Positions 3,671 through 37,398 of a stretch of DNA of 64,000 bases are shown piece by piece. The translations under genes were made by a program, and so were the position numbers. The DNA is taken from positions 6,934 to 70,933 of the forward strand of contig JAHFFY010000007.1 of NCBI GenBank assembly GCA_023247705.1. Direction: 5' to 3'. The notes below the pieces were generated by a model, which was given only the letters and a program-made list of their open reading frames with translations, made no database searches and was not told the DNA's origin. The DNA comes from Candidatus Omnitrophota bacterium (GTDB taxonomy: Bacteria; Omnitrophota; Gorgyraeia; Zapsychrales; JAHFFX01). Position 1 is the stretch's first letter. Each line of letters opens with the position of its first letter.

Positions 3671-4174
3671 TTAAAGAACATGCGCAAAGCGCGTGCCTGC
3701 AAGACGATTTTTGATCGCCTCATAAGCGCTAAAGAAAATAAATGTATAAATCAATGTCGCCAAAAGTTCATTTCTAAAGAACGGCAAAGCCAGGATAAAA
3801 CATTCAGATAAACCGTTCCAACCGAGCGGATATAATCCGGAAACCAACCAGACGCCTAAATTCGTGATAAAGAAAAACAACAAAGAAGAGGCCACGCTGA
3901 CCCAAAAGGTATTTTGAAAATTATTCTTCCCTCGCATTCGGTCGCCTATCCAAGCAATCAACAAAACACTTCCCCAGGTGAAAGGCATTGTTGCATGAAC
4001 ACCCAGAAAAAGATCGCTGACAATTAAAATCAAAACCGGCAATAAGACCGAATATGTTTTCTTAAAATAAATACCACTGAATAAAGCAATGGCAATAATC
4101 GGGGTAAAATTGGGGATATGAATAATAACTCTCGAGAGGAAACCTAAAACTATAAAGACGAATGGAACCATCAA
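3671..4174 (-). CDS. small polytopic membrane protein (possible ECF-type S-component-like), function unknown
   Basis: 167 aa, hydrophobic throughout with about 5 predicted TM segments; TAA stop. Confidence 0.45.
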   Translation of the reverse strand: MMVPFVFIVLGFLSRVIIHIPNFTPIIAIALFSGIYFKKTYSVLLPVLILIVSDLFLGVHATMPFTWGSVLLIAWIGDRMRGKNNFQNTFWVSVASSLLFFFITNLGVWLVSGLYPLGWNGLSECFILALPFFRNELLATLIYTFIFFSAYEAIKNRLAGTRFAHVL

Positions 4175-5145: not shown

Positions 5146-5161
5146 GGCCTCTTAAGAGGCC
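5146..5161 (-). terminator. intrinsic terminator of the giant ORF
   Basis: perfect palindrome GGCCTCTTAAGAGGCC about 100 nt past the stop, followed on the minus strand by TTTTGTTTGC. Confidence 0.55.
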
Positions 5162-5263: not shown

Positions 5264-8200
5264 TTATCGCGCAGAATAACTCAATTGTTCTCGTGCTGGC
5301 TGGCTGAGCCCGAGTAAAAACGGGAGATCTGTCACCGGAGTAATCTGCAGGATCACGGGGGTCAACCCGTTTATGGGGATGATTTCTAAATTTTGTTCAT
5401 TAGGCACAGCAGCGCCATCTGTTCCCTGGCCTTGAACCTGAAGGTTAAAATGAGCAGGATTCAAATCAATACCACCGGGGGGAGATCGTTTGTTTTGTCC
5501 AGCCATATCCATTATCGAACCGCGCTGATCCGGCCGATGATCCAAGCCTATCGATTTGGCGGCTTGCGAAATAGCGTGGACAGGCATCCGTCCGGCCACG
5601 TTCGCTAAAGGAAGCTGCATCTCCAAATTGGTGAGGAATCGCTCATTCAAATCATCCGACGACTTCAACAATGCCCTATCCGCCCCTTGATACGCTTCTT
5701 CTTCCCAGTCACTGCTATTCGTCAGCCAGATGGCGGCCATGTATTTCATCGATTCGGCAAATGTCCCGACACGATCATGGGTAAAATTGCTCAAATGCAC
5801 AGGCAAGCCGGTCGTCCACAAATCAGAAGATACAAAAAAATCGACCATATACTGTTCCAGTAAGTGGGCTAGTTCGTGATCGATTGTATTGGTAGCTTCA
5901 TCCAGAATAGATAACCTCGGATCACTGCGTCCTATATGGCTGGCGAGCCCTCTTCGCAAAAACATCGTCTTTCGATTTTCATAAGTACTAAACGCGCCTT
6001 CAAAAAAAACACGATTGTCCGTCAGTAAGACACGTTCGATTCCGACCAGTTTCCCCGGCTGCAAGGCCGAAGCAATCAATTCTTTCTCCAAATTCGTGTA
6101 TTCATCCGGGTTGACCAGATAGGCGGCAGGATTTTTCATTTGTTCATGACCGGTTTCAATGCCACTCGCTTGTCTTAATATCTCTTGATATCCCGCGATC
6201 GTCCTGACATCCGGGATATCCGCCCTGTTCACTCTTAAGCCAATATCTTCCAGCATCTCAATATTCCGTCGGGCTAAATCCCGGCCTTGTCTATTCCTGT
6301 CCAATTCCTCTTGAATCGCGATGCGTTCCAGCAAAAGACTGGTCGTCTTGCCTTGAACCGGGGCCTTTAACATCAGAATCAATTTGAGAACTTTCTTCTC
6401 ATAATCCAACCCCGGCTGAGAAGAAATCAAATTTAATAATTCCTGGGGTGTGATCTCATTATATTGACCGTCGTTAATCCGCTGGGCCAGGCGAACAACC
6501 GGGGCATCGTTAAAATCAATACTTTTCCAATAATGATCGTTCGATCTCCATTCCGTCGGAAAATTTAAAAATGTAAACTGGGGATCTGTCTCGCTCAAGG
6601 TCTTTTGAGCGATTAATTTAAAAAGTTCAATGGCCACATATTTCTGGACATACGGGAGATAATAGGTATCGCCGTGTTCAAAGTCGCTTCTTCCTCTAAT
6701 CATCGGAAGTGGGATCTGGAGATTGAGCCCCAGCTCTTTGATATGTCGCCGTAATCCAGGTGGAACCAATTTAAGGTAAGGCTCCGGAATCTCCGACACT
6801 CTCAACCCAACGCGATCTACCACCTGTAACGGCATGTCCTTGGTGGCAATGAGCCTGAACTGACCAAAGGTTGTCATCTGGGCATCCCCGAATCGAGGGA
6901 TTGTAAAATCAATCTCACTCACGACCTTACTGTCCACGTTTAATTGCCGTAACCGTCGAACGTTATCGGTATAATTGACGAAATAGATCTTGAAATCATC
7001 CGTCTGGGCCAAGCCGGTAAATATTTTCCATGTCCGCTGGGAGAGCATCTGGTCCAATTCGGGGATTGTATTTTCCTCTGCTTTAACCCTGCGAACAGTC
7101 ACGCCTTCCCGGATGTTGGGATTAGTGATCTTGCGCATACGGACCAATTTAAAATCGATAAAATTTCCATTCTCATCTTTGATGACATCTACGACAAACA
7201 TATAACGGCGAATACCGTTATTGTTGATCAACTCCAGCCGGTCGACCCCTTCGAAGGTGGTCAAACCTCCCGTCCCAAAAAAACCGGTCGTCCCTTGCTG
7301 TGCGCCGAACTCTTTAGTTGATTTACGGGCGACCCACATGGCAAATTCCTGCAACAACCCCGTCCCGTCATCCGCAATCTCCTCAACAAATTCCCTTTTG
7401 CCGGTCTCTTGATTGGTCCGCAGGTAATAACTGATCTCTAATTTTGAGGCACGGGCATCTTTACTGTTTTGAGTCAATTCCGCTGTGTAGGCGCCGGATT
7501 CCCGTTGGACTTTGCTATCCCGGACCAAATCCATTTGGGCGTTCTGGGGCGCGCCGGGCAATTGATGACGATGTTCGATAAAATAATCGACATCCATAAC
7601 GATCTTCCTCGCTTCCTGCAAGACCCGGTAGACCGCGGATTGATAGGGCATAAACCGGTACTGCAAGACCACGTCGGATTCTTTTTCCAATTTCTTGATG
7701 ACCTTGCTTTGAGTCTCATCAATATACCCGCGGGCCACCAAATCCTGCCAAAGTCCGTCCACATCCTCGACACCGATTTTGCTGAAACTTTTTTTCACAA
7801 TATTGCCGTACTGATCGTCCTTGGGGCGCCGCTCCTCTTCCTCCGCGATCCGGGCTAAACTGGTCCCTCCCCGCTCAAGATCAACATCTTCACCCTCCGG
7901 AAGAAACATAGCTTTCTCTTCCGAAGATTCTTCCCGGACCTGATCTCCGTCACTGGTCAAAAAGCTGGCAAAAGATCTCGCATCGCCCAAGGCGCGTGTT
8001 GAATCCGGATGATTGATGAAATCTGTCAAATCGGCCAATTCAACCGACGCAAAAGAAGTCAGCCATTTCGCAAGAAACCGTTCCATCGTCTGCGGCCTGG
8101 CCCGTAAAATCTTATCCAACTGTTTATTCATCGTCTCGATGTTCTGCGGCCCTTTATCCGCGACAAAAAAGAGAAAATCCAAAATCTTTTTCAAATCAAC

Positions 8201-11200
8201 CAACTTCATCTGTTTATTCGTGATCTGGTTTAACCGGTCAATCAATTCTCCGAACTTAGGGATCAAAGATAATTGTTCCTGGCTGCCGACTTTAAATCCG
8301 TATCCCAGCAATTCAAAAAGATAACGATACAAAACCTCTTCACCTAATTCAGAATCTTTAACCAACTTTTCCATCACGGTCTCGAAAGACAAATCCCAAT
8401 GAACGGCTAATTCAAATAGCCCGCTGAACAGGTTGACATAAAAATCCCGCTGATAACTATATTCTTCTTTACGGATGAAGTCCCTGATCGTCGTGTTGTT
8501 AAGAAACCCGTCCAGAAAAATTTTCAACCGGGCCATCCGTCCGGCAAACCGGTCGAAAGGCAACGACGCCGTCGCATCGAAATCCTTTCCTTCTCTGACC
8601 GCTCGTTCAAAACGCGCCCGGACCTCCCGGAGTTGGGCCCGGTACAGTTCATCAAACAGAGGCGCTAGTCTCCGGTTAATCTCTCCCCGGGCGTTATATT
8701 CGCCGTAACCGGAATTGATTAATTCCAGGATGGGTTGATAAATCGATTGAACCCGCTTGACCCAAGCCTCTCTTCGTGTGACCACCTCTTGATTCCATTT
8801 CACGCGCGTTCCCGCATCCTGCTGCGCGGGGATCCCTTGCGTAACCTTGGCGTTGACGATCGTCTTGGGATCAAAATATTTTGTCTCCCCCGTGTCCGCA
8901 TTATGCAAAACAAAATAATCCCCGTTCACATCCACCACGGCAAAACCGGCCGGGATACCGCCGAGCAAAGGATATTGTTTTTCTGCGGAATCAATCAGCA
9001 TCCAAAAGCCTTTAATCGGACCGCCCCCTGTCCCTTGAATAGTAAAAATCTGTTGGCCCAGAAGATAAGTCTTGCTTTGATTCACAAAGGTTAAATGTGG
9101 ATCAAAATCGAACGCCTGATTGCCCACTTTGACTTTGGAAATTCCTTCTTTGGAATTAAAATACCGGACGTTCCCTCCTTTTAAAGAACTCACGGCGCTG
9201 TGTTCTGGAATTGATTCTAAAAGCGTCGAGCCCATGAAATCGTTTCCAGTCTTTAAATCATAAATACCTGCCCCAGACATGAGACTTCGACCGTTACCCG
9301 AATCAAACCGATTAAAAACCATCACATCGGTCCCCGACAACCGGATGCTATCTCGTCCCTTATTAAATGGTGTTTCATCGTCGTATTTCAAAGAATCTCT
9401 CATCCCGGCGGGCCAGGTCGCCGGAACGCCTTGAGACGTCCGGTCCCAGATGGTTTTTTGCTGAGTATCGTAATTTTCCCAATAACGCGGCAAATCCTCC
9501 GGGGCAACCGGAAGCGAAGGCAATGCCTTTCCTGTCTTTCTATCAAAAGAATGAATTAATCCCGAGGCCACCATCACGTAAATATATTTTTGATCAGAGG
9601 AGATCCTGACCTCATTCAGATTCACAAAAATATTAGCCTGCTGATTGTCCTTCAGATTGACCACATATAATGAAGGGACCAGATTGCCTGAAGATGGTGT
9701 TTCAACTTTGCCCACCAGGATCGTTCCGGAGGAGTCAACTTCAACATGCTTGGTATCCCCCCATCCCACATAATCCTTTGTGAACAAATTAAGGAGACTA
9801 TACCCCGCATTGGTTTTTATAACAACCACATCGGCATTATCAAGCACGGTATATTCTTTATTGATCAAATCCGTAAGAATGATCTTAGGCGTCGGATGAG
9901 GATCATCATGATCATAATAAACCAGCTGGCCGGTTTCGGTACGGTGCACGGTGAATCTTCCCGACGGCGAAAGATGGATTTCTTGACTATTCGGCTCACC
10001 GGCTTTTAAATTGGGGTAACGGTTGGCATCGGAATCGATCGCGTTGATCCGCTTTAAAGTCAAAAGATCAACCACAAATTGATGGACACCATCTGTCAGC
10101 ACGGCCAGATGATCGTTATAAGTCAGCAACGTTTGATTCAACGATTTTAAATCATACCGGGCCAAGACCGGATCAGCCATCCGGATGATCTCGATCACTT
10201 GGCCGTTCTGATCGTAAGCCAAAAAAGTATCGGAATTAAGTCGAACATAGTTGACGATATCAGGATGACGCGCGGTGAGATTTCCCTGATTGTCCTTCAA
10301 GGCCGGGATCCCCTGATCATCCCACTCGATCGTCCAGCGATAAGGGGCATCATTTGGTTTGACGTCGTCTAACGTCAACTGCATCGTGGGAAAAATCTGG
10401 GTTGCCCCCGATCCGGCTTTGACGAAAATCGGATTCTCCGGTGCGCTTGGGTTAACATAATAAAGATCGCCGGTTTGCGGGTTAATCAGGAGAAAATAGG
10501 TCCCATCGAATAAAATCTGCGTGTAAATATCCGGAGAAACACCTGGAATCATTTTGATATCATTTAATTGAGCCAGCGATTGGAAGTTATAAGTCCCTAC
10601 GGATGTATCATGAATGACACGATACGTCGCGGGAACCGCGTCAATAGCCCCCTGAATGATCGTAGCAACTGTCGGATGACCGTTAAACCATCCTTGTTGG
10701 ACCACCTCTCCCTTAGGGGTACGAAAAACAATCAAACCGGGATTAGCATTGTACCCGGCAATTTCGTCGGAGACCGAAACTGTAAATGCATAACCGTTCA
10801 CCGGATCAATTGCATTGGAATTATTCGGATACCTGTGGTCAATGATCAGGCCTAAAGTCCGATCGAAATAAATGCCGCGTTGATTCAAATGCTGTAATGG
10901 AGATGCATTCACAAAGTCCAAAAACAGAGGCGGGAAGATCTGCTGATTTGGGTCGGCGCCAACTTGGCCGTTGATTCCGCCCAGGGTTATACCGAAGGCC
11001 GTATAATATTCTAAATGGATGCCAGTTAAACTTTTTTGCCACGGAGTCAGATTTCCGTCCTGATCTAATTCATATAAATCTCCCGAATCTGATGTTAAAC
11101 GAAAATAGACTTCATCTCCTTTGTAAATGGTAGAAATTTCAGCAATCCGAACGCCATAATCAGCCCTTTTCTTGACCTCTTTACTCTTATGAAAAAAGAT

Positions 11201-14200
11201 CTCTATCTCATCGTTATTCCGCACCATGACCGTGTAGGTGCCGGTTGAATCCGTGCGAAGATATTTATAGCCGTCATACATTTCCCCTGTACTTAAATCG
11301 AGCAAGGCCATATTTCCGGGTTTGAGTTGTATAAATGCCACATCGGCAAATGGATTTATACTCTCAGCGGCAGAGAAGAGATCACTATTAGCGTCATAAG
11401 GGATTTTCTTAACAACATCCCCCTTCTGGAAATCGACAATAACCAGATTATAGTCTATGCCCTGGGTTAGTTGTCGGTACATCAAATACTTGCCGCTTTG
11501 ACTAAAACGGAGTCCATGACTGCGATAAGCCCAGTCGTCACTCAAAGGGGTAATCGCATTGGGAGAAACATTAAGATCGGCTACCTTCGCAAACGAATTC
11601 AACTCATATTTCACCATGGTTTGAAGATCGATCAAGGCCGCGACATTGGCGTCCTTCCTCACGATATAAGCAAACCGCTTATCCGGAGAAATTGCGATAT
11701 CGCCGTCGTTTTTGTCGATAAATAGGGGATTCCAAGATCGCTCTGGATAGGAAATATAAATCTCATCTTGAGTGGTGATTTTATAAAAGCCGTTACTTAA
11801 CAATTCCGCGGACTCAGCATTTTTGAAAACAACTTTACCGGTCCCCGCCTCGATCAATTGATGATTGATTAAAATATATTTCTGCTTGGCGTCCCCAGGG
11901 ACCGCGGTGACGGTGCTCGGTGGGGTGAAAACAAGTCCAGGCGCCGGAGCGATTCCATCCGCTGGGACGCGAACAGGATTTTGCGAATCTTGCGGGTCAA
12001 GATAAATCACATCGCCGGTCGCGGGGTTAAGCAGGACAAAATACTTTCCATCAAAGCTCACAGGTTTATAGCTGCCTTTCTCCAATTGCGATAGCGTTGT
12101 CGGTATATTCGAACTTGAATAATTTGATACATCGCTCAGACTGAGACTTAATCCGAAAGACGTATCCAGCAAATAACGTTTGGAGGAATCCAGAATCCCC
12201 CGCATATCAATATAAAGTTGCGGGAAACTCGTCGTACCCGAATATTCCTGCCGGCTAAACCGCCCTTCCTGATACGAAGCAAATTTTTGCGAAGCTTGAT
12301 CGAAATAAGTAATATCTCCTTTAAATTTATAACTATTTTTCGTCATCGGATCAATCGCAACGGGCTGAGAAAGATCACGGGTGTCAACAACAAGATCGTA
12401 TCGGGGGTGGTGATAGATGTTTTTGGCTACTTGCAAAAGATCCAAATCAGCTAAGTTAACCTCAAAAATGTTTTCAACGGAGACAGGCGAGGTTTGGCCT
12501 AAGTTATTTACGACTCGGACTCCCTTCAATATTCCCTGGGTGTCAACACGCTCATAATAATAATCCGTATTGATCGGTTGGTATTGATAAAGTTGGCCAT
12601 CTTGATCAAAGCGAACCGGGTTGCCTGTTTCCGTCCATATCGTAAAATATTGCTGACCACCAGCATAACTTGTATCAACGATCGAAATTTTTCCACCCAC
12701 CTTGGTGGAATCAATAATTTCAAATCCATGATGAACATAAACTTCCATCTCGCCATTATGCTTGATCATCGCGGTGTAAGTTCCGGTCGAATCGGTGTGC
12801 AGATATTGATAGGCCGTTGTGTTGTTATTAAACAGTTTGGATTCAATGACACTACCGTTTAAAAAATCGCCGGTAAATATGGCCCCATCGGTCAAATCCA
12901 CCAGACTCATCGTTTGATTCTGATGAAAATAAACGAAGGCCACATTGGCGAAGGGATTCATATCATATTCAATATTAACTGAATCCGTGATTCCTTGCGG
13001 TAATTTTCGCACGATCTTGCGCGGATCCGGACTCTCCAGATCCACGATGACAAACGACAACTCATTTGAAGCAGAGATTTCGCGGTACATCAAATATCTT
13101 CCGTCATGGCTAAATCGCAAATCTCGATTTTTGGTGTTCTGAATGTCGGCGGTAAAATTTGGAAGAACGTCCTCCGGGAGAAAACCGGTGATGTCCATAA
13201 AATTATTTTTCAACAAAAATCTGGCGCCGGTCTCGACATTAACGATACTGTCGGTTAAACCGGCGGTTCTTTCCTCGATAAAAGCATATTTCTTATTGGG
13301 CGACGACATAATCTTTCCCTGGGCGTTGGAAGTTGACAACAAAACGACGATGTTGGTGCCTTCCAGATGGACAACTTCCTGTAAAATATTCTGAGAATCC
13401 TCATCGGGGGTTAAGGGTGATTCGGCCTTGGCTTCGGCAGTGTTCTTGATGCTGCGCGTGAGGAGATAACTGTTCCCTCCCAGATGTTCGAACTCTGTGA
13501 CACCGCTTAAAATTTCCGCTGTCGATCCCACCGGTTTCAAAACGCCGTTCACCACCACATGCTTCAGGCTGGCGTTGGTCGGGGCAAAAACAGTTGCCGT
13601 CGGTTGACTTTGCGCGGCCTGAGATTGGCCCGGACGGATCGGATGTTCAGGATCGTCCGGACTCACATAAACGACCTCTTTCGAGGCAGGATTAACAAAA
13701 ACAAAATACTGACCGTCCCAAAAAACATTCGTAAATTCCGTTGAAGAGACACTGGCAAGGATCGTCTCAATAGGAATATCTTTTTCAAAATTATAAAAAA
13801 CGTAATTGGAATTGGAATCCAATACGACAACCAGTCCATTTAACGAACGGGTCGGATCACTTTTACCTTTGGCCACGACCTTCCCTTGTTCAATACGGTC
13901 ACCTGTGTTCAATCTTCTGACGAGATTATTATTCCCATCGATAAATATCAACGATTCACGTCGGAAGAAATGAACAACCTCGTTACCGGACTCAAACGGA
14001 TATTTTATTCCGCTTAAAGCGTCAATCGCCTCCGGATGACTCGGACCAACTAGATTCATAAAATATTCAAGACCGGGCTGTTTAAAGATCAAATTATTCT
14101 GCTCAGGGCTAAAATTCGAAAAATCAAAAGAATTCCAACTCGGGAGCATACCGGGAAGCCCCGGAGAGAATAAAGTAAGTTGATTCCCGTCAAACGTTTC

Positions 14201-17200
14201 TCTGAACTTGTCTTTTAATTTATCCGGATCAACGACACCGGTGACGTCCTGTCCGTCCTGGTCCAAAAAGAGGATTTGTTCCGTTCCCGCTTTATTCACC
14301 CGGACTTCATAATAGGCATCGCCTTCAGACCAAACGGTCGACACCGACTGAATCAAATTGACGTTTAATTGAGAGGCATTGACCATGTTCCCATTGTGAT
14401 GGAAATAAATCACGAATGTACTGGCGATATTTCTAAACGCCGTATAAGTCCCGGAAGAATCGCTGCGAAAAGCCAAGCGCGCTTGATCCGGGATAAACTT
14501 GCCCGCAGCCAGACTAAAAAAATCGATCTCATCATCACCTTTTACTTGAAGAGCAACGATATCGCCAAAATTAGAGAGAGTCAATTCCATTTCTTCTCCT
14601 GGAAGGATAGGATGTTGAATGATAGGCTTTTTCTTTTCTAAATCGATCGCGACAAAGGTCTCCTCATTCGTCTTATTATTTTTTACCACATAGACAAGAT
14701 ACTTACCATCGGCCGTAAATTGGAGGTTGGACATCTTGATCTCCGGAGGAACAACCGGTGCCTGAAACTGCATTTTATACGCCTGAGTTATTACCGCAGG
14801 CACCTCAAAAAAATTTGCTCCTAAGATAAACCGTGAACCATTTTCCAAGTTGAAAATTTCATCAACATCTCCATTGCGTGAGATATAAACGAATTTTTCA
14901 TCCGGTGACATACGCAGCCGCGCTTTGAATTGGTTGGCGTAGTAGACCTCTTCGGGTTTCGATCCTTCTTGCAATCTGATCAATTTATAATAATTGATGT
15001 TTGCGATGTCCTCTATAATTTCGTAATAACCATTCCTCAGAGCCCTTAAGGCCAGAATATTGCCGGCGAACGGGACCTTTTTCCCGGTGGCAATTTCAAA
15101 AATACTCCCCTGGGACAGGATGTGCCGTTGATTGGCATTTTGTGGCACAGCAACAGAACCCATCGCTCTTTTAGATTGAGCGAGCGTCGGCGTACGAACA
15201 ATGGCCGAATTAAATTCATTCACCGCGTCCGAGTCCGGTTGACCGGCGCTTCGTTTAATCTCCTCGATCTCCTCGATCTCCATTTGTTTTGGAACCGCGG
15301 CCGTTTCGTAACCGGTGGTGGTCTCTTCGCCGGTGATGATGTTCAGCAATTCCGTCAGCTTCGCGAATTCTCTCTTTTCGTTGTCATTCAATCCTTCATA
15401 GATTCTCTTGGCGGCCAATTCCTGCAATCTTTTTCCCCACCGCTGGGGAATGGCCGTAAAGCGGTCGGTTTTAATGATCGGGAGCCGATCTTCTTCCGTC
15501 CAGGTATGCCAGTCCGGATGAAACGTTTCAACCCCGCGTAAACTTTCTTGGGTGAACGGAACAACGATCAACGGCAAACGTTTTTGCGCCCCCACGGTGA
15601 CACCTTGAATAATCTCTCCCCCCAGACGTCTTAAACTTGAAACACCTGACCAGTCAAACAAATCCTGATGAAGATAAATGACCTTCTTGCCTTCGGGAAC
15701 AGCCAGCTTCTGAAATTTCCTTTCGTGAGGAAGGATGACTCCGTTATTAGCTTCCACCCGTTCAATGACCGGAGACAAAACTTCCTTGGCCTTCGTTTTG
15801 CTGCTGGCGATCACCCATTCATAATTTGGATTTCCCGTTCCTAATTGCTCCAGCCCAACGATCAAAGTATTGACATAAGCAATTTTTTGGATATCGGTCA
15901 AACTGACGTTGGCAATGATTTTGGTGAAAACATGGTCGATGGCGGATTGAAAAGTTTGCAACGCCCCATCCTTGGAGAAATCGACCTGGATGCGGACATC
16001 CTTGCGTTTCTCGGAGACTTCCATTAACCGGCCGAATTCGACCATCAATCCTCCCTCCACCGTGGAAGAATCAATAATAGACGGCGGAATCTCAACCGCC
16101 AAAATCACCTCTTCGTTTCTGGCAAAAGAAACACGGTGCGGCAAAGACGGGACATGGACCATTTTGACTTTATTGTTCAGTTCTTCGATCTTATCTTCTT
16201 TGGATAACACTTCGGCAAGTTTATCTCCTTCTTTCGGGACAAACATACGGCTGACGGTCTGTTCGTTCATCCCTGTCCCATTATCAATAATGGTCACTGC
16301 ATGAGCACTGAAAGCAATATGAATATCGCCGCGTTCAACAGAAACCGGCAATGGATTTCCGACGATCAATCGTTTATCTTCCACCCCATTGACATGAACA
16401 GGGGCTTCATCTTCAATCTGAGTTGTAATATTCGCAAACCAAACATACGCAAACCGGCGATGAATATCTTCCACCATGGATTCTTGACTATTCTGGAATT
16501 GGGCCTCCCCTTCCGCCTTGGTTCGCAGGATCGGGGTCTTCACTTTAATCTGCACAACCGTCCCCTGGTTCGAGACTGGAGGGAATCCTAAAACCTGTTC
16601 AAACTCTTGCGGGGACTCCAACTGCACGATCTGAATATAGGCTTGCCCATTCGTGTCTTTAAGGATCGTGAGATGATACCAATCCCCTTTTAGGCTGTTA
16701 GCCTGACGGGTCACAATATCAATCCGGTCGCCTCCCGTTGATTCAAGCCAGTCGATAATCTGTTTCACACCCATCCCAAATTGTCCGATCTTAAAATCGC
16801 TTAACCCTAACCGCTCAAGAATGGCATCGAAACTGTTTGAAACAGCCTCGTTGATCCCTTGCGCACGGGGATTAGGATGCTGGCCAACAATGGTGACGTC
16901 TAATCTGGGATCAGTGTAAGTGCTCCGACCATCGGGAAGAGTGTTAATCATATCGATAATCTCTCGCTGGTAATTGCCGCGCACCAAAGCCCTATAGATT
17001 TCCCGATAAGCTTCTTCGGTCGTAAGATTCTGATTAAGATTTAGATTTTTAAGAAGATTCGATAAAATCTGCGGGGCCAGACGGCCTTCTGCCAAACGGG
17101 CCTGCGCGTGCACAAAATGTTCCAGATCGACGCCGCGGAAATTTTGAGAAGGATCAATGTATTCAAATGCGTTGAAACCTTTTCTGATCCGCTCCGAATC

Positions 17201-18925
17201 AGATGCCGATGGCAACCAGGTCGGCTGAGTGATTCCGGCGAACCTTGGGTCAACCGTGGGCACTGGTGGTTTTCTTACTCTCGACCAATTGCGCACATTA
17301 AATCTAGCCAACAATCTTCGGACGCCGATCGATAACTTTCCGGGCAATTCAGATAGCTTACTTGAAAAAAGCATCGCCTTGTCACCATCAACGGACGTCA
17401 ATTGATCTTTCCCCTCGGGATTCTCAGTCAACTTCTGTACGTCCGATCCGCTGATCGACTCAACCGGGACCGGCCTGTCCCAGGTTGTTCCATCCCAGGG
17501 AAGGACATTGCCATCGTCATCATATTCCATAACCGGCTGGACGGTCTCAAGCGACGCTTCGCTCAAAGATTCCCAGGCCGTCTTGATCTCGGGGGAAGAA
17601 TGGTTCAATTCCTGCGCAAGACGATCGAAATCAACCGCGAACGCCTCGCCTAAATTATGCTGTTCGATCCAATGTTTTAGTTGATCCTCTAATAATTCTT
17701 GAGGAGACTCGCTGATCTGAACTTGCGGGTTCGGAGATTGAAAATCCGTTAAAAGATATTCCATGTTCTCCTGGGTCCAGGGGACAAAACCCTCCGGGAG
17801 TGCGGTTCTCCTCGTCAACAGCGTTTGGATGACCGGGCCGTCGAACCCTCCCGAAAAATATTTCCGCGGAATCGTCTCTTTCATCTGGGTATCAAAATCT
17901 TCTTTGATGTAGTTGTAAACTCCCATCTTGAAGGCGTCGATATACTGCTGGTAAATCTTCTCTTTGACTTGCGGATCGTCGGCATTGACGCCGTTGATCT
18001 TCTTTTGATTGGAATAGACTTTATTCAAAAAATTATTCTGTAACGCCTGCTTGTACCAAACAGCCAGGATCATCGAATTGTAAATCTGGCGCAACTGTGC
18101 GAAATTTTTGTTTTCGTTCACCTCGCGCTCGATCTCGGGAATTAAAATATTTTTGGCGATCTGCGATGATAAATTACTGATTTGCTCGACATCCCCCTCG
18201 TTCTGCTGTTGAGTTCCCAATTGTTCGTTGCTCAAATTTTTCTTACGCGAGAGATAATCTTCCTCCAGCATCACGCTTAAATGACTTTCGATGACGAAGG
18301 CTTTCCCCTTATTTTCATAAACAACGGCTTTATCAGGCACAATCCAAACCTTGTTAAACGTATTCAAGGGAATATTTGTCGTCCCATACAACTCATAGGC
18401 TTTTTGATACACCTGATCCCAGAATCTTTTTCCGAGGCCGGTCTCCGGATAAGTCAATGAAGACATCAATTGTTTCAGGATATAATCCTGGGCCAAAAGA
18501 TCTCGCCCCATCTCCGTTTGACCGAAAGCGTCCGGAACGATCCGGTCTTTTTCATACGGAGATAGATTCACCCAAAGATCATCTTCGGGGATCGCCAAGG
18601 TGGCGAGAAAATATTTTATCAATTTTTCGTATTCCGCTTTTAACTCTTTTTTGGGAGAAGTTGTCTGCCCGCGGTCAACGATGAAATCAAATCTCAGAGG
18701 ATTTTCGGGATGAAGAGCCAGACCTCTTAGAATCGGGGGATTAAAAGCGGTCGTTGGAGCGACCATCGTCCCGGGTTTGGGTAGATCAAGATTGGGCTGA
18801 GCGTAAACAACAGCAGAATAATTGAGGATGGGAAAAAGACTTAATCCGACGAAACACAAAAACAAATAAAGCGTGATCCATCGAACCCAGGGACTTCTTC
18901 TATGCTGGACAAAAGAGATAAACAT
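5264..18925 (-). CDS. giant multidomain protein (4553 aa): N-terminal membrane anchor, GHKL-type ATPase signatures, four tandem ~530-aa super-repeats, C-terminal HExxH module
   Basis: uninterrupted 13,662-nt ORF with TAA stop; N-terminal hydrophobic segment WITLYLFLCFVGLSLFPIL; motif ELTQNSKDA...IADDGTGL...GFFGTGGLT at aa ~3817-3888; EAVSNSFDA and IIDNGTGMN at aa ~693-886; repeated modules FSxDGxYLxY...[ST]GTYT and [FW]DGxYFxLxNPxTG; HELAH at aa 4349-4353. Confidence 0.85.
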   Translation of the reverse strand: MFISFVQHRRSPWVRWITLYLFLCFVGLSLFPILNYSAVVYAQPNLDLPKPGTMVAPTTAFNPPILRGLALHPENPLRFDFIVDRGQTTSPKKELKAEYEKLIKYFLATLAIPEDDLWVNLSPYEKDRIVPDAFGQTEMGRDLLAQDYILKQLMSSLTYPETGLGKRFWDQVYQKAYELYGTTNIPLNTFNKVWIVPDKAVVYENKGKAFVIESHLSVMLEEDYLSRKKNLSNEQLGTQQQNEGDVEQISNLSSQIAKNILIPEIEREVNENKNFAQLRQIYNSMILAVWYKQALQNNFLNKVYSNQKKINGVNADDPQVKEKIYQQYIDAFKMGVYNYIKEDFDTQMKETIPRKYFSGGFDGPVIQTLLTRRTALPEGFVPWTQENMEYLLTDFQSPNPQVQISESPQELLEDQLKHWIEQHNLGEAFAVDFDRLAQELNHSSPEIKTAWESLSEASLETVQPVMEYDDDGNVLPWDGTTWDRPVPVESISGSDVQKLTENPEGKDQLTSVDGDKAMLFSSKLSELPGKLSIGVRRLLARFNVRNWSRVRKPPVPTVDPRFAGITQPTWLPSASDSERIRKGFNAFEYIDPSQNFRGVDLEHFVHAQARLAEGRLAPQILSNLLKNLNLNQNLTTEEAYREIYRALVRGNYQREIIDMINTLPDGRSTYTDPRLDVTIVGQHPNPRAQGINEAVSNSFDAILERLGLSDFKIGQFGMGVKQIIDWLESTGGDRIDIVTRQANSLKGDWYHLTILKDTNGQAYIQIVQLESPQEFEQVLGFPPVSNQGTVVQIKVKTPILRTKAEGEAQFQNSQESMVEDIHRRFAYVWFANITTQIEDEAPVHVNGVEDKRLIVGNPLPVSVERGDIHIAFSAHAVTIIDNGTGMNEQTVSRMFVPKEGDKLAEVLSKEDKIEELNNKVKMVHVPSLPHRVSFARNEEVILAVEIPPSIIDSSTVEGGLMVEFGRLMEVSEKRKDVRIQVDFSKDGALQTFQSAIDHVFTKIIANVSLTDIQKIAYVNTLIVGLEQLGTGNPNYEWVIASSKTKAKEVLSPVIERVEANNGVILPHERKFQKLAVPEGKKVIYLHQDLFDWSGVSSLRRLGGEIIQGVTVGAQKRLPLIVVPFTQESLRGVETFHPDWHTWTEEDRLPIIKTDRFTAIPQRWGKRLQELAAKRIYEGLNDNEKREFAKLTELLNIITGEETTTGYETAAVPKQMEIEEIEEIKRSAGQPDSDAVNEFNSAIVRTPTLAQSKRAMGSVAVPQNANQRHILSQGSIFEIATGKKVPFAGNILALRALRNGYYEIIEDIANINYYKLIRLQEGSKPEEVYYANQFKARLRMSPDEKFVYISRNGDVDEIFNLENGSRFILGANFFEVPAVITQAYKMQFQAPVVPPEIKMSNLQFTADGKYLVYVVKNNKTNEETFVAIDLEKKKPIIQHPILPGEEMELTLSNFGDIVALQVKGDDEIDFFSLAAGKFIPDQARLAFRSDSSGTYTAFRNIASTFVIYFHHNGNMVNASQLNVNLIQSVSTVWSEGDAYYEVRVNKAGTEQILFLDQDGQDVTGVVDPDKLKDKFRETFDGNQLTLFSPGLPGMLPSWNSFDFSNFSPEQNNLIFKQPGLEYFMNLVGPSHPEAIDALSGIKYPFESGNEVVHFFRRESLIFIDGNNNLVRRLNTGDRIEQGKVVAKGKSDPTRSLNGLVVVLDSNSNYVFYNFEKDIPIETILASVSSTEFTNVFWDGQYFVFVNPASKEVVYVSPDDPEHPIRPGQSQAAQSQPTATVFAPTNASLKHVVVNGVLKPVGSTAEILSGVTEFEHLGGNSYLLTRSIKNTAEAKAESPLTPDEDSQNILQEVVHLEGTNIVVLLSTSNAQGKIMSSPNKKYAFIEERTAGLTDSIVNVETGARFLLKNNFMDITGFLPEDVLPNFTADIQNTKNRDLRFSHDGRYLMYREISASNELSFVIVDLESPDPRKIVRKLPQGITDSVNIEYDMNPFANVAFVYFHQNQTMSLVDLTDGAIFTGDFLNGSVIESKLFNNNTTAYQYLHTDSTGTYTAMIKHNGEMEVYVHHGFEIIDSTKVGGKISIVDTSYAGGQQYFTIWTETGNPVRFDQDGQLYQYQPINTDYYYERVDTQGILKGVRVVNNLGQTSPVSVENIFEVNLADLDLLQVAKNIYHHPRYDLVVDTRDLSQPVAIDPMTKNSYKFKGDITYFDQASQKFASYQEGRFSRQEYSGTTSFPQLYIDMRGILDSSKRYLLDTSFGLSLSLSDVSNYSSSNIPTTLSQLEKGSYKPVSFDGKYFVLLNPATGDVIYLDPQDSQNPVRVPADGIAPAPGLVFTPPSTVTAVPGDAKQKYILINHQLIEAGTGKVVFKNAESAELLSNGFYKITTQDEIYISYPERSWNPLFIDKNDGDIAISPDKRFAYIVRKDANVAALIDLQTMVKYELNSFAKVADLNVSPNAITPLSDDWAYRSHGLRFSQSGKYLMYRQLTQGIDYNLVIVDFQKGDVVKKIPYDANSDLFSAAESINPFADVAFIQLKPGNMALLDLSTGEMYDGYKYLRTDSTGTYTVMVRNNDEIEIFFHKSKEVKKRADYGVRIAEISTIYKGDEVYFRLTSDSGDLYELDQDGNLTPWQKSLTGIHLEYYTAFGITLGGINGQVGADPNQQIFPPLFLDFVNASPLQHLNQRGIYFDRTLGLIIDHRYPNNSNAIDPVNGYAFTVSVSDEIAGYNANPGLIVFRTPKGEVVQQGWFNGHPTVATIIQGAIDAVPATYRVIHDTSVGTYNFQSLAQLNDIKMIPGVSPDIYTQILFDGTYFLLINPQTGDLYYVNPSAPENPIFVKAGSGATQIFPTMQLTLDDVKPNDAPYRWTIEWDDQGIPALKDNQGNLTARHPDIVNYVRLNSDTFLAYDQNGQVIEIIRMADPVLARYDLKSLNQTLLTYNDHLAVLTDGVHQFVVDLLTLKRINAIDSDANRYPNLKAGEPNSQEIHLSPSGRFTVHRTETGQLVYYDHDDPHPTPKIILTDLINKEYTVLDNADVVVIKTNAGYSLLNLFTKDYVGWGDTKHVEVDSSGTILVGKVETPSSGNLVPSLYVVNLKDNQQANIFVNLNEVRISSDQKYIYVMVASGLIHSFDRKTGKALPSLPVAPEDLPRYWENYDTQQKTIWDRTSQGVPATWPAGMRDSLKYDDETPFNKGRDSIRLSGTDVMVFNRFDSGNGRSLMSGAGIYDLKTGNDFMGSTLLESIPEHSAVSSLKGGNVRYFNSKEGISKVKVGNQAFDFDPHLTFVNQSKTYLLGQQIFTIQGTGGGPIKGFWMLIDSAEKQYPLLGGIPAGFAVVDVNGDYFVLHNADTGETKYFDPKTIVNAKVTQGIPAQQDAGTRVKWNQEVVTRREAWVKRVQSIYQPILELINSGYGEYNARGEINRRLAPLFDELYRAQLREVRARFERAVREGKDFDATASLPFDRFAGRMARLKIFLDGFLNNTTIRDFIRKEEYSYQRDFYVNLFSGLFELAVHWDLSFETVMEKLVKDSELGEEVLYRYLFELLGYGFKVGSQEQLSLIPKFGELIDRLNQITNKQMKLVDLKKILDFLFFVADKGPQNIETMNKQLDKILRARPQTMERFLAKWLTSFASVELADLTDFINHPDSTRALGDARSFASFLTSDGDQVREESSEEKAMFLPEGEDVDLERGGTSLARIAEEEERRPKDDQYGNIVKKSFSKIGVEDVDGLWQDLVARGYIDETQSKVIKKLEKESDVVLQYRFMPYQSAVYRVLQEARKIVMDVDYFIEHRHQLPGAPQNAQMDLVRDSKVQRESGAYTAELTQNSKDARASKLEISYYLRTNQETGKREFVEEIADDGTGLLQEFAMWVARKSTKEFGAQQGTTGFFGTGGLTTFEGVDRLELINNNGIRRYMFVVDVIKDENGNFIDFKLVRMRKITNPNIREGVTVRRVKAEENTIPELDQMLSQRTWKIFTGLAQTDDFKIYFVNYTDNVRRLRQLNVDSKVVSEIDFTIPRFGDAQMTTFGQFRLIATKDMPLQVVDRVGLRVSEIPEPYLKLVPPGLRRHIKELGLNLQIPLPMIRGRSDFEHGDTYYLPYVQKYVAIELFKLIAQKTLSETDPQFTFLNFPTEWRSNDHYWKSIDFNDAPVVRLAQRINDGQYNEITPQELLNLISSQPGLDYEKKVLKLILMLKAPVQGKTTSLLLERIAIQEELDRNRQGRDLARRNIEMLEDIGLRVNRADIPDVRTIAGYQEILRQASGIETGHEQMKNPAAYLVNPDEYTNLEKELIASALQPGKLVGIERVLLTDNRVFFEGAFSTYENRKTMFLRRGLASHIGRSDPRLSILDEATNTIDHELAHLLEQYMVDFFVSSDLWTTGLPVHLSNFTHDRVGTFAESMKYMAAIWLTNSSDWEEEAYQGADRALLKSSDDLNERFLTNLEMQLPLANVAGRMPVHAISQAAKSIGLDHRPDQRGSIMDMAGQNKRSPPGGIDLNPAHFNLQVQGQGTDGAAVPNEQNLEIIPINGLTPVILQITPVTDLPFLLGLSQPAREQLSYSAR

Positions 18926-19103
18926 GGCAGTAAAATTTTTATTTTATTAGTATCAATACTATGATTAAAGTATACCATCTTAATAATTTACAGATATGGG
19001 TTTTATTTTATTGAAAGATGGAAAATCTCAAAACGGCAGGTTGACATGATCGTCAAAAAAAGAGGGTATTTCGAGAGGCCATCACCAGTTTACCGCACAA
19101 CTT

Positions 19104-19629: not shown

Positions 19630-20067
19630 TTACCCCTCGACACCAACTCCATATTCATACACCATTTCTCCGCCGTAATAAGCAGCGGTCGATACAAAAA
19701 TGGCTGTGATAAAAACGACAGCCAAGAAGGCGAATCTAAAAATGACAGGTTTTTTTCTTTGAATGATTTTAAGGATCACAAAACTGATCCCCGATCCATA
19801 CATCGTCAAGAAGGCGAACCTTTGGTGCAAATCCAGAACCGGATGATGTAATTTTAAATGGTTTGCTTCGTTCAAGCCTGTTAAGACGACAAACGGGGTG
19901 AGCATGACGGCTAAGACATAAAGATGCCAAGCACTCCGGTGCATAGAATCGTTTTTAAAAATCAAACTCAATGCTTCAATCCCGACCGCGCTCAAAAACA
20001 GCGCGATCGGGAAATGAACGACTTTAGGATGCAACAAATGCAAGTCCCAATGGGAAAGAAATCCCAT
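19630..20067 (-). CDS. DUF2231-like membrane protein (HPxxVHFPIAL signature)
   Basis: 145 aa, about 4 TM segments, motif HPKVVHFPIALFL; start overlaps the upstream stop (TAATG), indicating translational coupling. Confidence 0.5.
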   Translation of the reverse strand: MGFLSHWDLHLLHPKVVHFPIALFLSAVGIEALSLIFKNDSMHRSAWHLYVLAVMLTPFVVLTGLNEANHLKLHHPVLDLHQRFAFLTMYGSGISFVILKIIQRKKPVIFRFAFLAVVFITAIFVSTAAYYGGEMVYEYGVGVEG

Positions 20068-20441
20068 TATTTCTCGGTCTTTTCTTGAGCGGCCACTTCC
20101 TCTAAAGCTTTTTTGCTGTATTTTTCAGGATCTTTATTAAAATCCTTGATGCACATTGTACAGCAAAGAGTGTACGCCTTACCTTGATATTCCAATTTGA
20201 CAGGCTCTCCCATACTTTCATCATGGACGGAATTGCCGCTGACCGGACAAATTTTATTACCGACTTCGACCAAATCAGATTTTTCATTTTCAACGATGGG
20301 TTGGCCATTCTCCTCGGTAGGAGCGGTCATCGCCGGAGCGGTTACGGCAGGGGCGGAAGCGACCTCTTCTCCATAGGCCAAAAAATAACCGTTCATTAAA
20401 AAAAGCGTCACAACAGAAAAAATCAATTTTAGTTTCATCAA
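20067..20441 (-). CDS. YHS/TRASH-domain metal-binding protein (secreted)
   Basis: 124 aa; signal peptide; CPVSGNSV...YQGKAYTLCCTMCIKDFNKDPEKY matches the YHS-domain pattern CPVxG...YxGxxYxFCxxxC...F..dPekY. Confidence 0.6.
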   Translation of the reverse strand: MMKLKLIFSVVTLFLMNGYFLAYGEEVASAPAVTAPAMTAPTEENGQPIVENEKSDLVEVGNKICPVSGNSVHDESMGEPVKLEYQGKAYTLCCTMCIKDFNKDPEKYSKKALEEVAAQEKTEK

Positions 20442-33301: not shown

Positions 33302-33775
33302 TCAACTTAAATTCCGCGCAACCTTTCTTAAAACATTTTTACAAATCGTCATGTCCTTGATGCGAATCCCCTGCTGAGCTTCTTTGAGCATCTGCTGGAC
33401 CACACGCAACAATTCCTGCTGCAGTTCCTTCCCTTTATTCGTTAGATAAATTAATTTCAGGCGGCCATCTTGGCTATTGGGAATACGCACCACTAAATTG
33501 CGTTTTTCTAAACCATCAATCAAACGGGTGATACTTGTTTTATCCTTACAGGTAACGCCCGCGAGATCCTTTTGGCTCTGACCGTTTTTCTGCCAAAGGT
33601 TCATTAAAACCGCCCACTGCTCGCAGGTAACATTATGGCCCGCCTTTTCAAAATTGTGATTGAGCCGGTTGGCCATGGCACGGCCGGCTCGGCCGACGAT
33701 GTAGCCGAGCGATTCTTCGAGATGATAAAAAATGCTTTTTTTCATAGGCATATTAGTTGCATATACAACTTTCAA
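33302..33775 (-). CDS. MarR-family transcriptional regulator
   Basis: 157 aa winged-helix region (…VTCKDKTSITRLIDGLEKRNLVVRIPNSQDGRLKLIYLTNKGKEL); first gene of the efflux operon. Confidence 0.85.
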   Translation of the reverse strand: MKVVYATNMPMKKSIFYHLEESLGYIVGRAGRAMANRLNHNFEKAGHNVTCEQWAVLMNLWQKNGQSQKDLAGVTCKDKTSITRLIDGLEKRNLVVRIPNSQDGRLKLIYLTNKGKELQQELLRVVQQMLKEAQQGIRIKDMTICKNVLRKVARNLS

Positions 33776-37388: not shown

Positions 37389-37398
37389 ACCTATGCCC

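Follow-up and report, generated by a model that had tools for sequence, protein, structure and literature searches.

The 13.7-kb gene described here belongs to a family of giant proteins that is specific to Omnitrophota and is built from a head, a variable cargo and a tail. It lies in a window of 64,000 nucleotides (the whole stretch of DNA that was analysed), and its cargo consists of a first predicted GHKL module, propeller-like repeats, a helical linker, a second predicted GHKL module and a minimal zinc metalloprotease of the Wss1/SprT-like kind. A preliminary description of this DNA had presented the architecture as novel; it is not unique, but part of a phylum-wide family with 636 database matches, of which all those with an organism name come from Omnitrophota, and with more than 588 loci, several per genome, in GTDB species-representative genomes. 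The GTDB loci all lie in MAGs labelled Omnitrophota or Omnitrophica, “uncultured Planctomycetales” or plain “bacterium”.

The features are as follows, in window coordinates:

5264..18925, minus strand: complete ORF with ATG start, 4553 aa plus stop codon, 13.7 kb
18800..18925, minus strand: predicted signal peptide, aa 1-42, with basic n-region HRR..R, core at aa 16-34 and V-Y-A↓Q
17807..18799, minus strand: family N module (head), aa 43-373, ~330 aa, directly after the signal peptide
15209..17191, minus strand: predicted GHKL module 1, aa 579-1239, with Bergerat motifs at aa 693-885 in the order I-III-IV-II
13583..15148, minus strand: super-repeat 1, aa 1260-1781, beta-propeller-like
11921..13582, minus strand: super-repeat 2, aa 1782-2335, from self-comparison, HMM and profile
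10349..11902, minus strand: super-repeat 3, aa 2342-2859, from self-comparison, HMM and profile
8774..10309, minus strand: super-repeat 4, aa 2873-3384, the most divergent copy, start at 2873/2907
7601..8773, minus strand: conserved linker, aa 3385-3775, helical by sequence reading, always before GHKL module 2
6581..7600, minus strand: predicted GHKL module 2, aa 3776-4115, Hsp90/MutL-type ATPase domain plus middle (transducer-like) domain
6041..6580, minus strand: helical connector, aa 4116-4295, between ATPase and protease, from predicted secondary structure
5711..6040, minus strand: predicted minimal zincin domain, aa 4296-4405, H4350-E-x-x-H4354, candidate third ligand H4383
5303..5485, minus strand: family C module (tail), aa 4481-4541, GGIDLNP...INGLTPVILQITPVTDLPFLLG, ~60 aa
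5161-5146, minus strand: intrinsic-terminator-like hairpin GGCCTCTTAAGAGGCC, then T-run TTTTGTTT

The gene and its surroundings

The single minus-strand frame of 4553 aa reported at 5264-18925 was recovered exactly, and its start codon is supported because homologues align from residue 1. The source is evidently a metagenome-assembled contig, so an assembly chimera, or several fused genes taken as one ORF, has to be considered. Given the base composition of the window, 4553 stop-free codons would arise by chance with P ~10^-120. Inside the ORF there are no long DNA repeats able to cause a misjoin (the one pair found measures 35 nt, at 77% identity), and five near full-length homologues from independent samples run collinear with it, from the N module at the head to the C module at the tail; together these make a chimera unlikely. 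The head and tail modules also occupy the very ends of the protein, just as in hundreds of paralogues, and the chance that the gene is an artefact of either kind is close to negligible.

The intrinsic terminator placed at 5146-5161 is present as a hairpin and T-run. The upstream gene ends in a hairpin and T-run of its own at ~19142-19105 (read by eye), and the 13.7-kb gene therefore looks monocistronic. The promoter region assigned to 18926-19100 fared less well, since a consensus scan there gave no sigma-70-like promoter and a TGgTATACT-like -10 element in the upstream region is visible by eye only. Neighbouring genes encode a TonB receptor, DUF6580, YHS, DUF2231, HtrA-like and TetR proteins and an RND pump. 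Synteny with the upstream copper-handling genes had been suggested as a check, and the two homologues examined both lie in unrelated neighbourhoods; a conserved synteny or operon was rejected for the gene's own locus, the two homologue loci and the family loci alike. Nothing points to several genes in what had been called an undescribed “system”; it looks like one monocistronic gene. No secretion or anchoring partner adjoins this gene or 80 family loci, and no T1SS or T9SS genes lie near the 13.7-kb gene. Family members also occur as tandem arrays.

The head and tail cassette and its predicted export signal

Hundreds of paralogues of 2.5-7 kAA have the cassette in common at 50-60% identity, whereas their middles are unrelated. 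These middles are mostly cytoplasmic-type enzymes, including radical SAM proteins, kinases, AAA+ proteins and glycolytic enzymes, and much of the family cargo needs cytosolic cofactors (SAM, acetyl-CoA, ATP, Fe-S clusters). The N module is 50-60% identical to its counterpart in about all of the 119 matches listed, and its predicted model gave no fold match when compared with solved structures. The C module is common to most of the 119 matches listed, around a variable middle. In the present protein it reads GGIDLNP...PVIINITPV..LLG, and the family pattern is GGI(D/N)..P..(20-70 aa)..G(L/F)xPVI..I.P....LLG; 97 of 120 members carry it inside their last 200 aa, and none carries it internally. A search with this module returned mostly short fragments at contig ends, and the two “small proteins” on long contigs that were checked, which lie at the end of same-strand ORF runs or directly behind a 1729-aa ORF, are consistent with broken giant genes. 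The preliminary description had missed this conserved module.

When the whole protein was scanned against Pfam and NCBIfam, the only matches were to HATPase_c_3 and sacsin-like models, below threshold, and none fell in the C module. The earlier statement that no characterised family fits is borne out in that no curated Pfam or NCBIfam family covers the protein. PADLOC anti-phage defence models gave nothing beyond a chance-level Cas4b match (E=0.029).

The only TM-like segment in the 4553 aa spans aa 16-34. It had been described as a single N-terminal hydrophobic anchor; the single segment stands, and it is better read as part of a cleavable Sec signal peptide. A positive n-region before the hydrophobic core, combined with the A-x-A↓Q site, predicts an N-in signal peptide with the remainder of the chain outside. 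Sites of this type occur in 56 of 64 family members tested, in which the median net charge of the n-region is +4; we infer that cleavage here would follow V-Y-A and precede Q43. The protein contains one Cys against ~40 expected (P ~2e-16), and 392 of the 397,073 residues in 120 family members are Cys, 71 of these within the first 45 aa, so that cysteine makes up ~0.1% of the family as opposed to 0.87% in neighbouring genes. In a radical-SAM member, six of nine Cys fall within two CxxxCxxC motifs, and cysteine appears, from that member's sequence, to be retained where it is catalytic. Cysteine depletion of this strength is typical for exported, not cytoplasmic, proteins. The suggestion of a surface or periplasmic ATP-dependent machine is a reasonable reading in the sense of an exported machine that contains ATPases.

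The predicted GHKL modules, the repeats and the zincin

The Bergerat-fold ATPase signatures noted earlier are present and belong to two putative GHKL modules. In module 1, eleven residues (E693, N697, D700, G714, F716, G719, G788, T789, D881, G883, G885) are invariant in 18 sequences, and all four motifs are invariant, yet they follow the non-canonical order I-III-IV-II rather than I-II-III-IV. A module 1 profile gave weak matches in the PDB to GyrB, HtpG and Hsp90 (E ~1e-3). Compared with module 2 in HHalign, native module 1 reached a probability of 12%, then 8%, so the two modules are not simple duplicates. Moving the motif-II segment in silico raised the HHalign value from 8% to 86%, and as the permutation was designed to align the motifs, the result is support, not proof, for a possible transposition of motif II.

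Module 2 is a predicted GHKL (Bergerat-fold) ATPase. E3816, N3820 and D3823 of motif I (the N box, E-x-x-x-N-x-x-D), D3852, G3854 and G3856 of motif II (DxGxG) and G3881, G3884 and G3886 of motif III (GxxGxG) are invariant in 17 homologues, as is R4079 in the conserved segment IQIPLPLIRxRS, which may be the basic residue that the second (transducer/middle) domain of GHKL ATPases offers to the gamma-phosphate. The module matches an Hsp90 profile and has a confident predicted model with a Bergerat alpha/beta sandwich fold, in which N and M superpose on GRP94 (326 aa) and TRAP1 and the lid segment is flexible (pLDDT below 50). In searches of the PDB, a single-sequence query returned designed helical repeats and was uninformative, whereas a profile query was informative; for that profile, a word-indexed homologue search yielded 4 fragments only, and an exhaustive representative search was used instead. 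The resemblance to Hsp90 is at fold level only. Its E..N..D, DxGxG and GxxGxG motifs are in register with those of the Hsp90 family (GRP94, TRAP1, HtpG), but identity is only 12-13%, no C-terminal dimerisation domain is seen here, neither the protein nor any of the 17 homologues matches Pfam HSP90 at E<=1, and module 2 is followed by a zincin inside a 4.5-kAA chain that is probably exported.

Between the two modules lie four tandem super-repeats, described earlier as ~530 aa long and recovered here by self-comparison and HMM as four copies of ~520 aa each, with 22-31% identity between copies; plain self-BLAST missed them, and a tiled, more sensitive search was required. Against the PDB, the repeat profile matched beta-propellers only, the best being NirN-like 6rtd at E=3e-5; Tako8, hydrazine synthase beta, 6-phosphogluconolactonases, TolB and prolyl oligopeptidase were matched too, and all these matches extend over only the first ~240 of 522 positions. 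Pfam PD40 was matched in 2 of 12 members (E=0.07). By their sequence profile, the repeats are probably beta-propeller-like, and the number of copies ranges from 1 to 4 across homologues, with four here. The linker that follows (aa 3385-3775) is conserved in 14 homologues, and part of it occurs also in stand-alone core proteins.

The C-terminal HExxH motif of the preliminary description was found as HELAH at aa 4350-4354. H4350, E4351 and H4354 are invariant in 17 homologues, as is H4383, which we infer to be the third metal ligand. In the predicted model, the motif sits on a helix (model positions 568-586) within a zincin fold that matches Wss1, SprT and minigluzincins. Wss1/WLM, SprT/Spartan and the minigluzincins projannalysin and proabylysin have the same minimal zincin of ~110 aa, with a small beta-sheet, the HExxH helix and a closing helix. 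The domain differs from them in its candidate third ligand, 29 residues past the motif in a conserved F-T-H-D, in having no detected DNA-binding parts, and in a Pfam match that is sub-threshold and confined to 1 of 17 members. The catalytic residues of the zincin and of both GHKL modules are invariant across homologues with 28-56% identity.

Among the matches listed, about 17 proteins have both GHKL modules, five of them being homologous over almost the full length. One module is never seen without the other in a chain; the two flank a propeller-like array of variable length, and they appear in the same order in other giants and in stand-alone proteins of 1.84-2.16 kAA, which are without a signal peptide (an example is on contig JBBILA010000008.1 of GCA_037445105.1). 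Judged by this distribution, the putative double-GHKL core is one unit, rarer than the cassette.

Proposed mechanism and comparison with known systems

We favour, with a confidence only slightly above an even chance, the reading that the protein is a Sec-exported cassette protein of the envelope or surface whose two ATPase modules would form a nucleotide-gated clamp beside a protease. The signal peptide would carry the Cys-free chain over the cytoplasmic membrane, and the head and tail modules would serve as common handles for export, anchoring or envelope display. Conservation is far higher in head and tail than in any cargo and suggests that all paralogues meet one and the same partner. GHKL ATPases undergo nucleotide-driven N-domain dimerisation, as established for Hsp90, MutL, GyrB and MORC, and clamps of the MutL, MORC and GyrB type form their dimers from two separate chains and work on DNA. 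Their ATP-driven N-domain clamp closure is the model borrowed for the GHKL pair, although none of their DNA-binding, endonuclease or CW/S5-specific features was detected in this protein. Purely by conjecture, the two modules may pair inside one chain; such a pair might close ligand-binding propellers into a clamp, and the adjacent zincin could then cleave the trapped protein or process its own giant chain. A more ambitious reading holds that the cassette is an undescribed, phylum-specific export or display route by which whole cysteine-purged enzymes and ATPases (glycolytic enzymes, kinases, radical-SAM enzymes and the present clamp-protease) leave the cytoplasm, with a host or prey cell maybe as the target, and that the core is a new kind of single-chain, nucleotide-gated clamp in which one ATPase domain has its Bergerat motifs transposed; we regard this as tentative and on the whole doubtful.

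Several observations weigh against an exported clamp. GHKL ATPases require ATP, and none would be expected beyond the cytoplasm, the stand-alone cores have no signal, the cargo uses cytosolic cofactors, and no partner lies near the loci. A rival reading is a membrane-tethered machine, held by an uncleaved N-terminal anchor, with its 4500-aa bulk facing the cytoplasm, where ATP is at hand for the two GHKL ATPases and the zincin would act in protein quality control, as in a sacsin-/Hsp90-like chaperone-protease. The invariance of the catalytic GHKL residues implies real ATP use, the stand-alone core proteins lack a signal peptide, the family cargo is of cytoplasmic type (radical SAM, kinases, AAA+), and, as far as the available part of the source goes, the topology of long Omnitrophota proteins is predicted and unverified (Nielsen & Lui 2026, bioRxiv 10.64898/2026.06.07.730766). 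A tethered machine is nevertheless rather unlikely, given that the positive n-region and conserved A-x-A↓Q predict the bulk of the chain to be outside, that the cysteine purge is more than ten-fold and family-wide, and that no role would be left for the conserved module found strictly at the C-terminus.

The export signals and the ATP-dependent cargo could also be reconciled if the protein were an effector sent into a host or prey cell, where the clamp-protease would attack host proteins using the ATP found there. Export in an unfolded state would account for the missing cysteine, translocation signals could be provided by the conserved head and tail, and the available parts of two papers propose that Omnitrophota are host-dependent or predatory and tie giant proteins to attachment and predation (PMC10066038; bioRxiv 10.1101/2023.11.21.568195). 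Secretion-system genes are absent near the gene and near the family loci examined, and much of the cargo consists of housekeeping-type metabolic enzymes that would be odd as effectors, which leaves this an improbable account. A passive surface coat or adhesin, with the propeller array binding ligands or cells and the GHKL and HExxH parts as structural relics, would fit a giant, exported, Cys-free and repeat-expanded protein, and adhesion is what is usually proposed for epibiont giant ORFs in the available part of PMC10066038. We consider it highly improbable, because all catalytic residues of both GHKL modules and the zincin stay invariant at 28-56% identity, Ig-like, cadherin, RTX and dockerin domains were not detected, and the core exists without any export signal too.

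An exported cassette protein with a clamp beside a protease, as we prefer to read it, invites comparison with other large proteins. Human sacsin has 4579 aa and three repeats, each with an Hsp90-like domain; it is of similar length and likewise strings several Hsp90-like GHKL modules together. Its models score far below cut-off here (NCBIfam NF047352, 23 bits against 50; Pfam SACS, 13.1 against 32.8), and unlike sacsin the present protein is bacterial, carries an export signal and has propeller-like repeats and a zincin, with UbL, DnaJ and HEPN not detected. LapA-type RTX adhesins and proteins with T9SS C-terminal domains offer a works-like analogy, in that conserved terminal modules are common to many unrelated large exported proteins within one lineage, and low cysteine and repeat expansion recur as well. 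LapA-type proteins combine an N-terminal retention module with a C-terminal T1SS signal, and T1SS substrates are without a Sec signal peptide. The present protein differs from RTX/LapA proteins in having no GGxGxD motifs, a Sec-type signal and no T1SS neighbours. The 4553-aa protein contains no LPxTG motifs, and no Pfam or NCBIfam matches to NRPS/PKS domains (condensation, adenylation, KS, AT) were found, in agreement with the earlier remark that hallmarks of RTX, NRPS/PKS and adhesin proteins are missing.

Giant genes in Omnitrophota have already been published, and in the available parts of the three papers they are genes over 30-90 kb, or proteins of at least 10 kAA, mostly with many TM helices and with T2SS/Tad-type and PilZ genes alongside (bioRxiv 10.1101/2023.11.21.568195; PMC10066038; bioRxiv 10.64898/2026.06.07.730766). 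Among them, the Archaeovorins comprise 46 genes over 90 kb, with many TM helices, T2SS-like genes upstream, PilZ downstream and glycosyltransferase/methyltransferase/NUDIX/SecA-like content (West-Roberts 2023, bioRxiv 10.1101/2023.11.21.568195). On the same partial texts, the present gene is like other Omnitrophota giants in its phylum, its very long single ORF, its signal peptide or membrane segment and its mosaic enzyme cargo, with HATPase-type domains among the commonest and repeats expanded by old, diverged duplications. It is unlike the Archaeovorin type in its size (13.7 kb/4.5 kAA), its one hydrophobic segment and its lack of their domains or neighbours. The head/tail cassette, the cysteine purge and the double-GHKL-propeller-zincin core are not described in the available parts of these papers (bioRxiv 10.1101/2023.11.21.568195; Seymour et al. 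2023, PMC10066038; bioRxiv 10.64898/2026.06.07.730766).

Published work on giant genes in Omnitrophota centres on proteins of at least 10 kAA, which are too large and unique to dissect. The 4.5-kAA protein opens a more tractable layer, with hundreds of mid-size paralogues that have one head and tail and swappable cargo. It is structurally notable for an N module without a fold match, a putative GHKL module with rearranged motifs, and the fixed pairing of a predicted double GHKL with a minimal zincin. If head and tail are indeed handles for export or anchoring, they would provide a sequence tag by which the exported proteins of this uncultured, host-dependent phylum could be listed and would define a partner to seek; they would also sharpen the directly testable puzzle of why enzymes that depend on ATP, SAM and Fe-S clusters are exported without cysteines.

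The giant gene and its surroundings

The minus-strand frame at 5264..18925 begins with ATG and runs uninterrupted for 4553 aa, as the preliminary description had it, and the probability of a stop-free frame of this length arising by chance at the base composition of the window is ~10^-120. There are no long internal DNA repeats within the ORF, and the protein is collinear end to end with five homologues from independent samples, so an assembly chimera is an unlikely source. The intrinsic terminator proposed at 5146-5161 is present as a hairpin with a T-run (5161-5146), ~100 nt past the stop codon. A promoter region had also been placed at 18926-19100, where a consensus scan found no sigma-70-type promoter. 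The gene upstream closes with its own terminator-like hairpin and T7 run (~19142-19105, by eye), and the giant gene therefore looks monocistronic.

The downstream side has a 189-aa ORF with no match in Pfam and genes for DUF6580, a TonB-dependent receptor and a dienelactone hydrolase. On the upstream side are a 140-aa ORF and genes for DUF2231, a YHS-domain protein, an HtrA-like protease, TetR, an MFS transporter and an RND pump whose adaptor is of the CusB/HlyD type. The earlier label of a Cu-handling neighbourhood fits two genes just upstream, which a terminator-like hairpin separates from the giant gene:

20067-20441, minus strand: YHS/TRASH metal-binding protein
19630-20067, minus strand: DUF2231 membrane protein

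A test for conserved synteny with these genes had been suggested, and the synteny did not hold: the closest homologue, P0002, is flanked by LptFG and, at its other end, by genes for nitrite reductase, a Mo-oxidoreductase and MOSC, and another homologue, P0003, is flanked by further giants of its own family, so the metal-handling synteny is not conserved. T2SS-like and PilZ neighbours are reported, in the available text, for Omnitrophota genes >90 kb (bioRxiv 10.1101/2023.11.21.568195). Genes of neither kind occur in the giant gene's neighbourhood in the window.

Two other gene sets in the window deserve mention. In a 1520-aa ORF at 27490-32052 (minus strand), an RND transporter of the AcrB/AcrD type (ACR_tran, E=2e-288) is joined to an outer-membrane efflux protein domain (OEP, aa 1335-1515); a CusB/HlyD-type adaptor (32113-33216) and a MarR regulator (33302-33775) come next. 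For an inner-membrane pump and its outer-membrane factor to share a single chain is, to our knowledge, unusual. A trehalose gene set occupies 34765-38877 (minus strand), its first two members overlapping in an operon-like manner:

37399-38877, minus strand: OtsA-type glycosyltransferase family 20
36579-37469, minus strand: trehalose-phosphatase
34765-36582, minus strand: GH15/trehalase-like hydrolase

A common head and tail around variable cargo

Homologous giant ORFs, which the preliminary description had suggested looking for in related MAGs, are plentiful. A search of 5.8 billion proteins with the giant protein returned 636 matches, and all those with a named organism are from Omnitrophota. 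Among the 119 matches listed (2,500-7,100 aa), residues 1-365 recur at 50-60% identity in essentially all, the final ~70 residues in most, and the middle in only ~17. Other members of this cassette family, so called for its common head and tail, carry in their middles Pfam domains of enolase, PGK, TPI, PEP carboxykinase, phosphoglucomutase and M48+UbiB, as well as methyltransferases, GNATs, AAA+ ATPases, helicases, radical SAM and WD40 arrays. A profile of the head (N module) found >588 loci in species-representative genomes; all of the 80 listed come from MAGs labelled Omnitrophota/Omnitrophica, "uncultured Planctomycetales" or "bacterium". Genomes have several loci each (DATDQB01, for instance, has at least 5 and JAJDCA01 at least 6), and the window holds a single copy.

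Members are sometimes arranged in head-to-tail tandem arrays, as at locus L082 (1-6890, 7001-16666), where P0003 stands immediately behind the 3549-aa member P0119 and ahead of another large ORF. Among the 80 loci (L001-L080), the tail motif of another member lies just upstream in 9 and another member is among the upstream ORFs in 11; other family members aside, no conserved partner gene was found upstream. Short "proteins" consisting of the tail module only (L084 6001-6348, L085 6001-6222) end same-strand ORF runs, one with phosphoglucomutase domains, or follow a 1729-aa ORF, and resemble giant genes that frameshifts or gene calling have split.

The single N-terminal hydrophobic anchor described earlier is indeed the only TM-like segment (aa 16-34), but its pattern, a basic n-region, a hydrophobic core and then V-Y-A|Q, is that of a predicted cleavable Sec signal peptide. 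In members with the LxLPxPG landmark the median n-region charge is +4, and in 56 of 64 position -1 is Ala, position -3 small or aliphatic and position +1 Gln. The N module that follows (~330 aa) has 32 residues invariant across 46 sequences. Its AlphaFold model is reasonably confident (pLDDT 77, pTM 0.74), and Foldseek found nothing among solved structures at E<=1e-3, the best TM-scores being <=0.13 by query length and <=0.22 by target; its profile matched no PDB sequence, and neither Pfam nor NCBIfam matched within it. The C module (consensus GGIDLNPxxLxLQ...IxGFxPVIINITPxTNLPxLLG) lies inside the last 200 aa in 97/120 members and is internal in none.

The family is also depleted of cysteine. 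The giant protein has one (position 24, within the signal peptide), where ~40 would be expected from the 0.87% of 26 other window ORFs (P ~2e-16). The 120 members together have 392 in 397,073 residues (0.10%), 71 of them within the first 45 aa, and 24 members have none. P0101, a radical-SAM member, has 9, of which 6 form two CxxxCxxC motifs, so cysteines seem to be retained where catalysis requires them. Combined with the signal peptide, the depletion argues that the family acts outside the cytoplasm or crosses a membrane unfolded.

A core of two GHKL-type modules, propeller-like repeats and a zincin

The Bergerat-fold signatures noticed earlier belong to two GHKL modules, the first of them putative. 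In module 1 (aa 579-1239) the four motifs are invariant in 18 homologues and stand in the order I-III-IV-II; its profile matches GyrB, HtpG and Hsp90 weakly (E ~1e-3) and in pieces. The HHalign probability between the modules rises from 8% in the native order to 86%, motifs in register, when the motif-II segment is moved to its canonical place, a permutation chosen so that the motifs align and hence support rather than proof. Four super-repeats, as previously counted, span aa 1260-3384; a profile of 12 copies matches only beta-propellers in the PDB (best E=3e-5), over the first ~240 positions. There are 3 copies in P0002 and 2 in P0003-5, and the extra length of the giant protein stems from an old repeat expansion.

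In module 2, the N box (E3816, N3820, D3823), DxGxG (3852-3856) and GxxGxG (3881-3886) are invariant in 17 homologues, as are H4350, E4351, H4354 and H4383 of the zincin, which bears out the C-terminal HExxH motif. The module 2 profile matches the Hsp90 N-domain (E=1.5e-6), and Pfam HATPase_c_3 is detected in 7/17 members. In the AlphaFold model of aa 3776-4405 (pLDDT 82, pTM 0.77), the final ~110 aa, taken on their own, match Wss1 (6.3), projannalysin (5.6), Spartan SprT (5.3), BepA (5.1) and proabylysin (5.0). From motifs, profile and model matches, this region is thus predicted to be an Hsp90/MutL-type ATPase with middle domain, a helical connector and a minimal zincin.

An exhaustive HMMER search with the module 2 profile over 1.84 billion cluster representatives gave only 254 matches at E<=1e-3. 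Among these, besides members of the cassette family, are stand-alone proteins of 1,840-2,160 aa without signal peptide, N module or C module (P0311, P0313, P0316, P0321, P0325 and P0329; loci L086, which is GCA_037445105.1, contig JBBILA010000008.1, and L087). They keep the order of the giant protein: module 1, a beta-rich middle, sometimes part of the linker, module 2, zincin. The giants P0245, P0247 and P0254 have the core behind other N-termini, and thus, as far as sequences can tell, the two GHKL modules always travel together. The stand-alone proteins have ordinary housekeeping genes as neighbours and are also Cys-poor (0.15-0.37%).

Precedents and possible function

Giant genes of Omnitrophota are already known from the available text of three papers (bioRxiv 10.1101/2023.11.21.568195; PMC10066038; bioRxiv 10.64898/2026.06.07.730766), so the giant protein does not represent an altogether new category. 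As for the architecture described earlier as novel, in a non-exhaustive comparison with the available text of those papers we found no description of the double-GHKL-propeller-zincin core, of the rearranged GHKL module, of the head/tail cassette, of the cysteine depletion, or of the N module without a fold match. The protein differs from the "Archaeovorins" as their available description defines them, and falls below the family membership thresholds of Hsp90, sacsin and SprT/WLM and those of known defence systems; it likewise falls below those of RTX adhesins and NRPS/PKS, whose hallmarks had been noted as missing.

The main tension is that an extracytoplasmic location sits uneasily with cargo needing ATP, SAM, acetyl-CoA or Fe-S clusters. 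A tethered chaperone-protease facing the cytoplasm is an unlikely reading, and delivery as an effector into a host or prey cell, with that cell supplying the ATP, is more improbable again. That the protein is a passive coat or adhesin we think very improbable, and that the ORF is an artefact scarcely credible. The combined reading of identity, export and a clamp-protease is one we lean towards slightly, most of its weight coming from what the protein is; family membership, domain identities at the strength given above, conservation of catalytic residues and export-type sequence features were established here.

In the combined reading, the giant chain would leave through Sec, and head and tail may dock every paralogue to one envelope component or export step, since they are conserved far better than any cargo. 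ATP-driven N-domain dimerisation is established for Hsp90, MutL, GyrB and MORC. By analogy, modules 1 and 2 might pair intramolecularly, so that the propeller array closes as a clamp, and the zincin beside module 2 would cut bound protein or process the giant chain itself; taken alone, this clamp-protease mechanism is a tentative proposal, for which we would give rather less than even chances.
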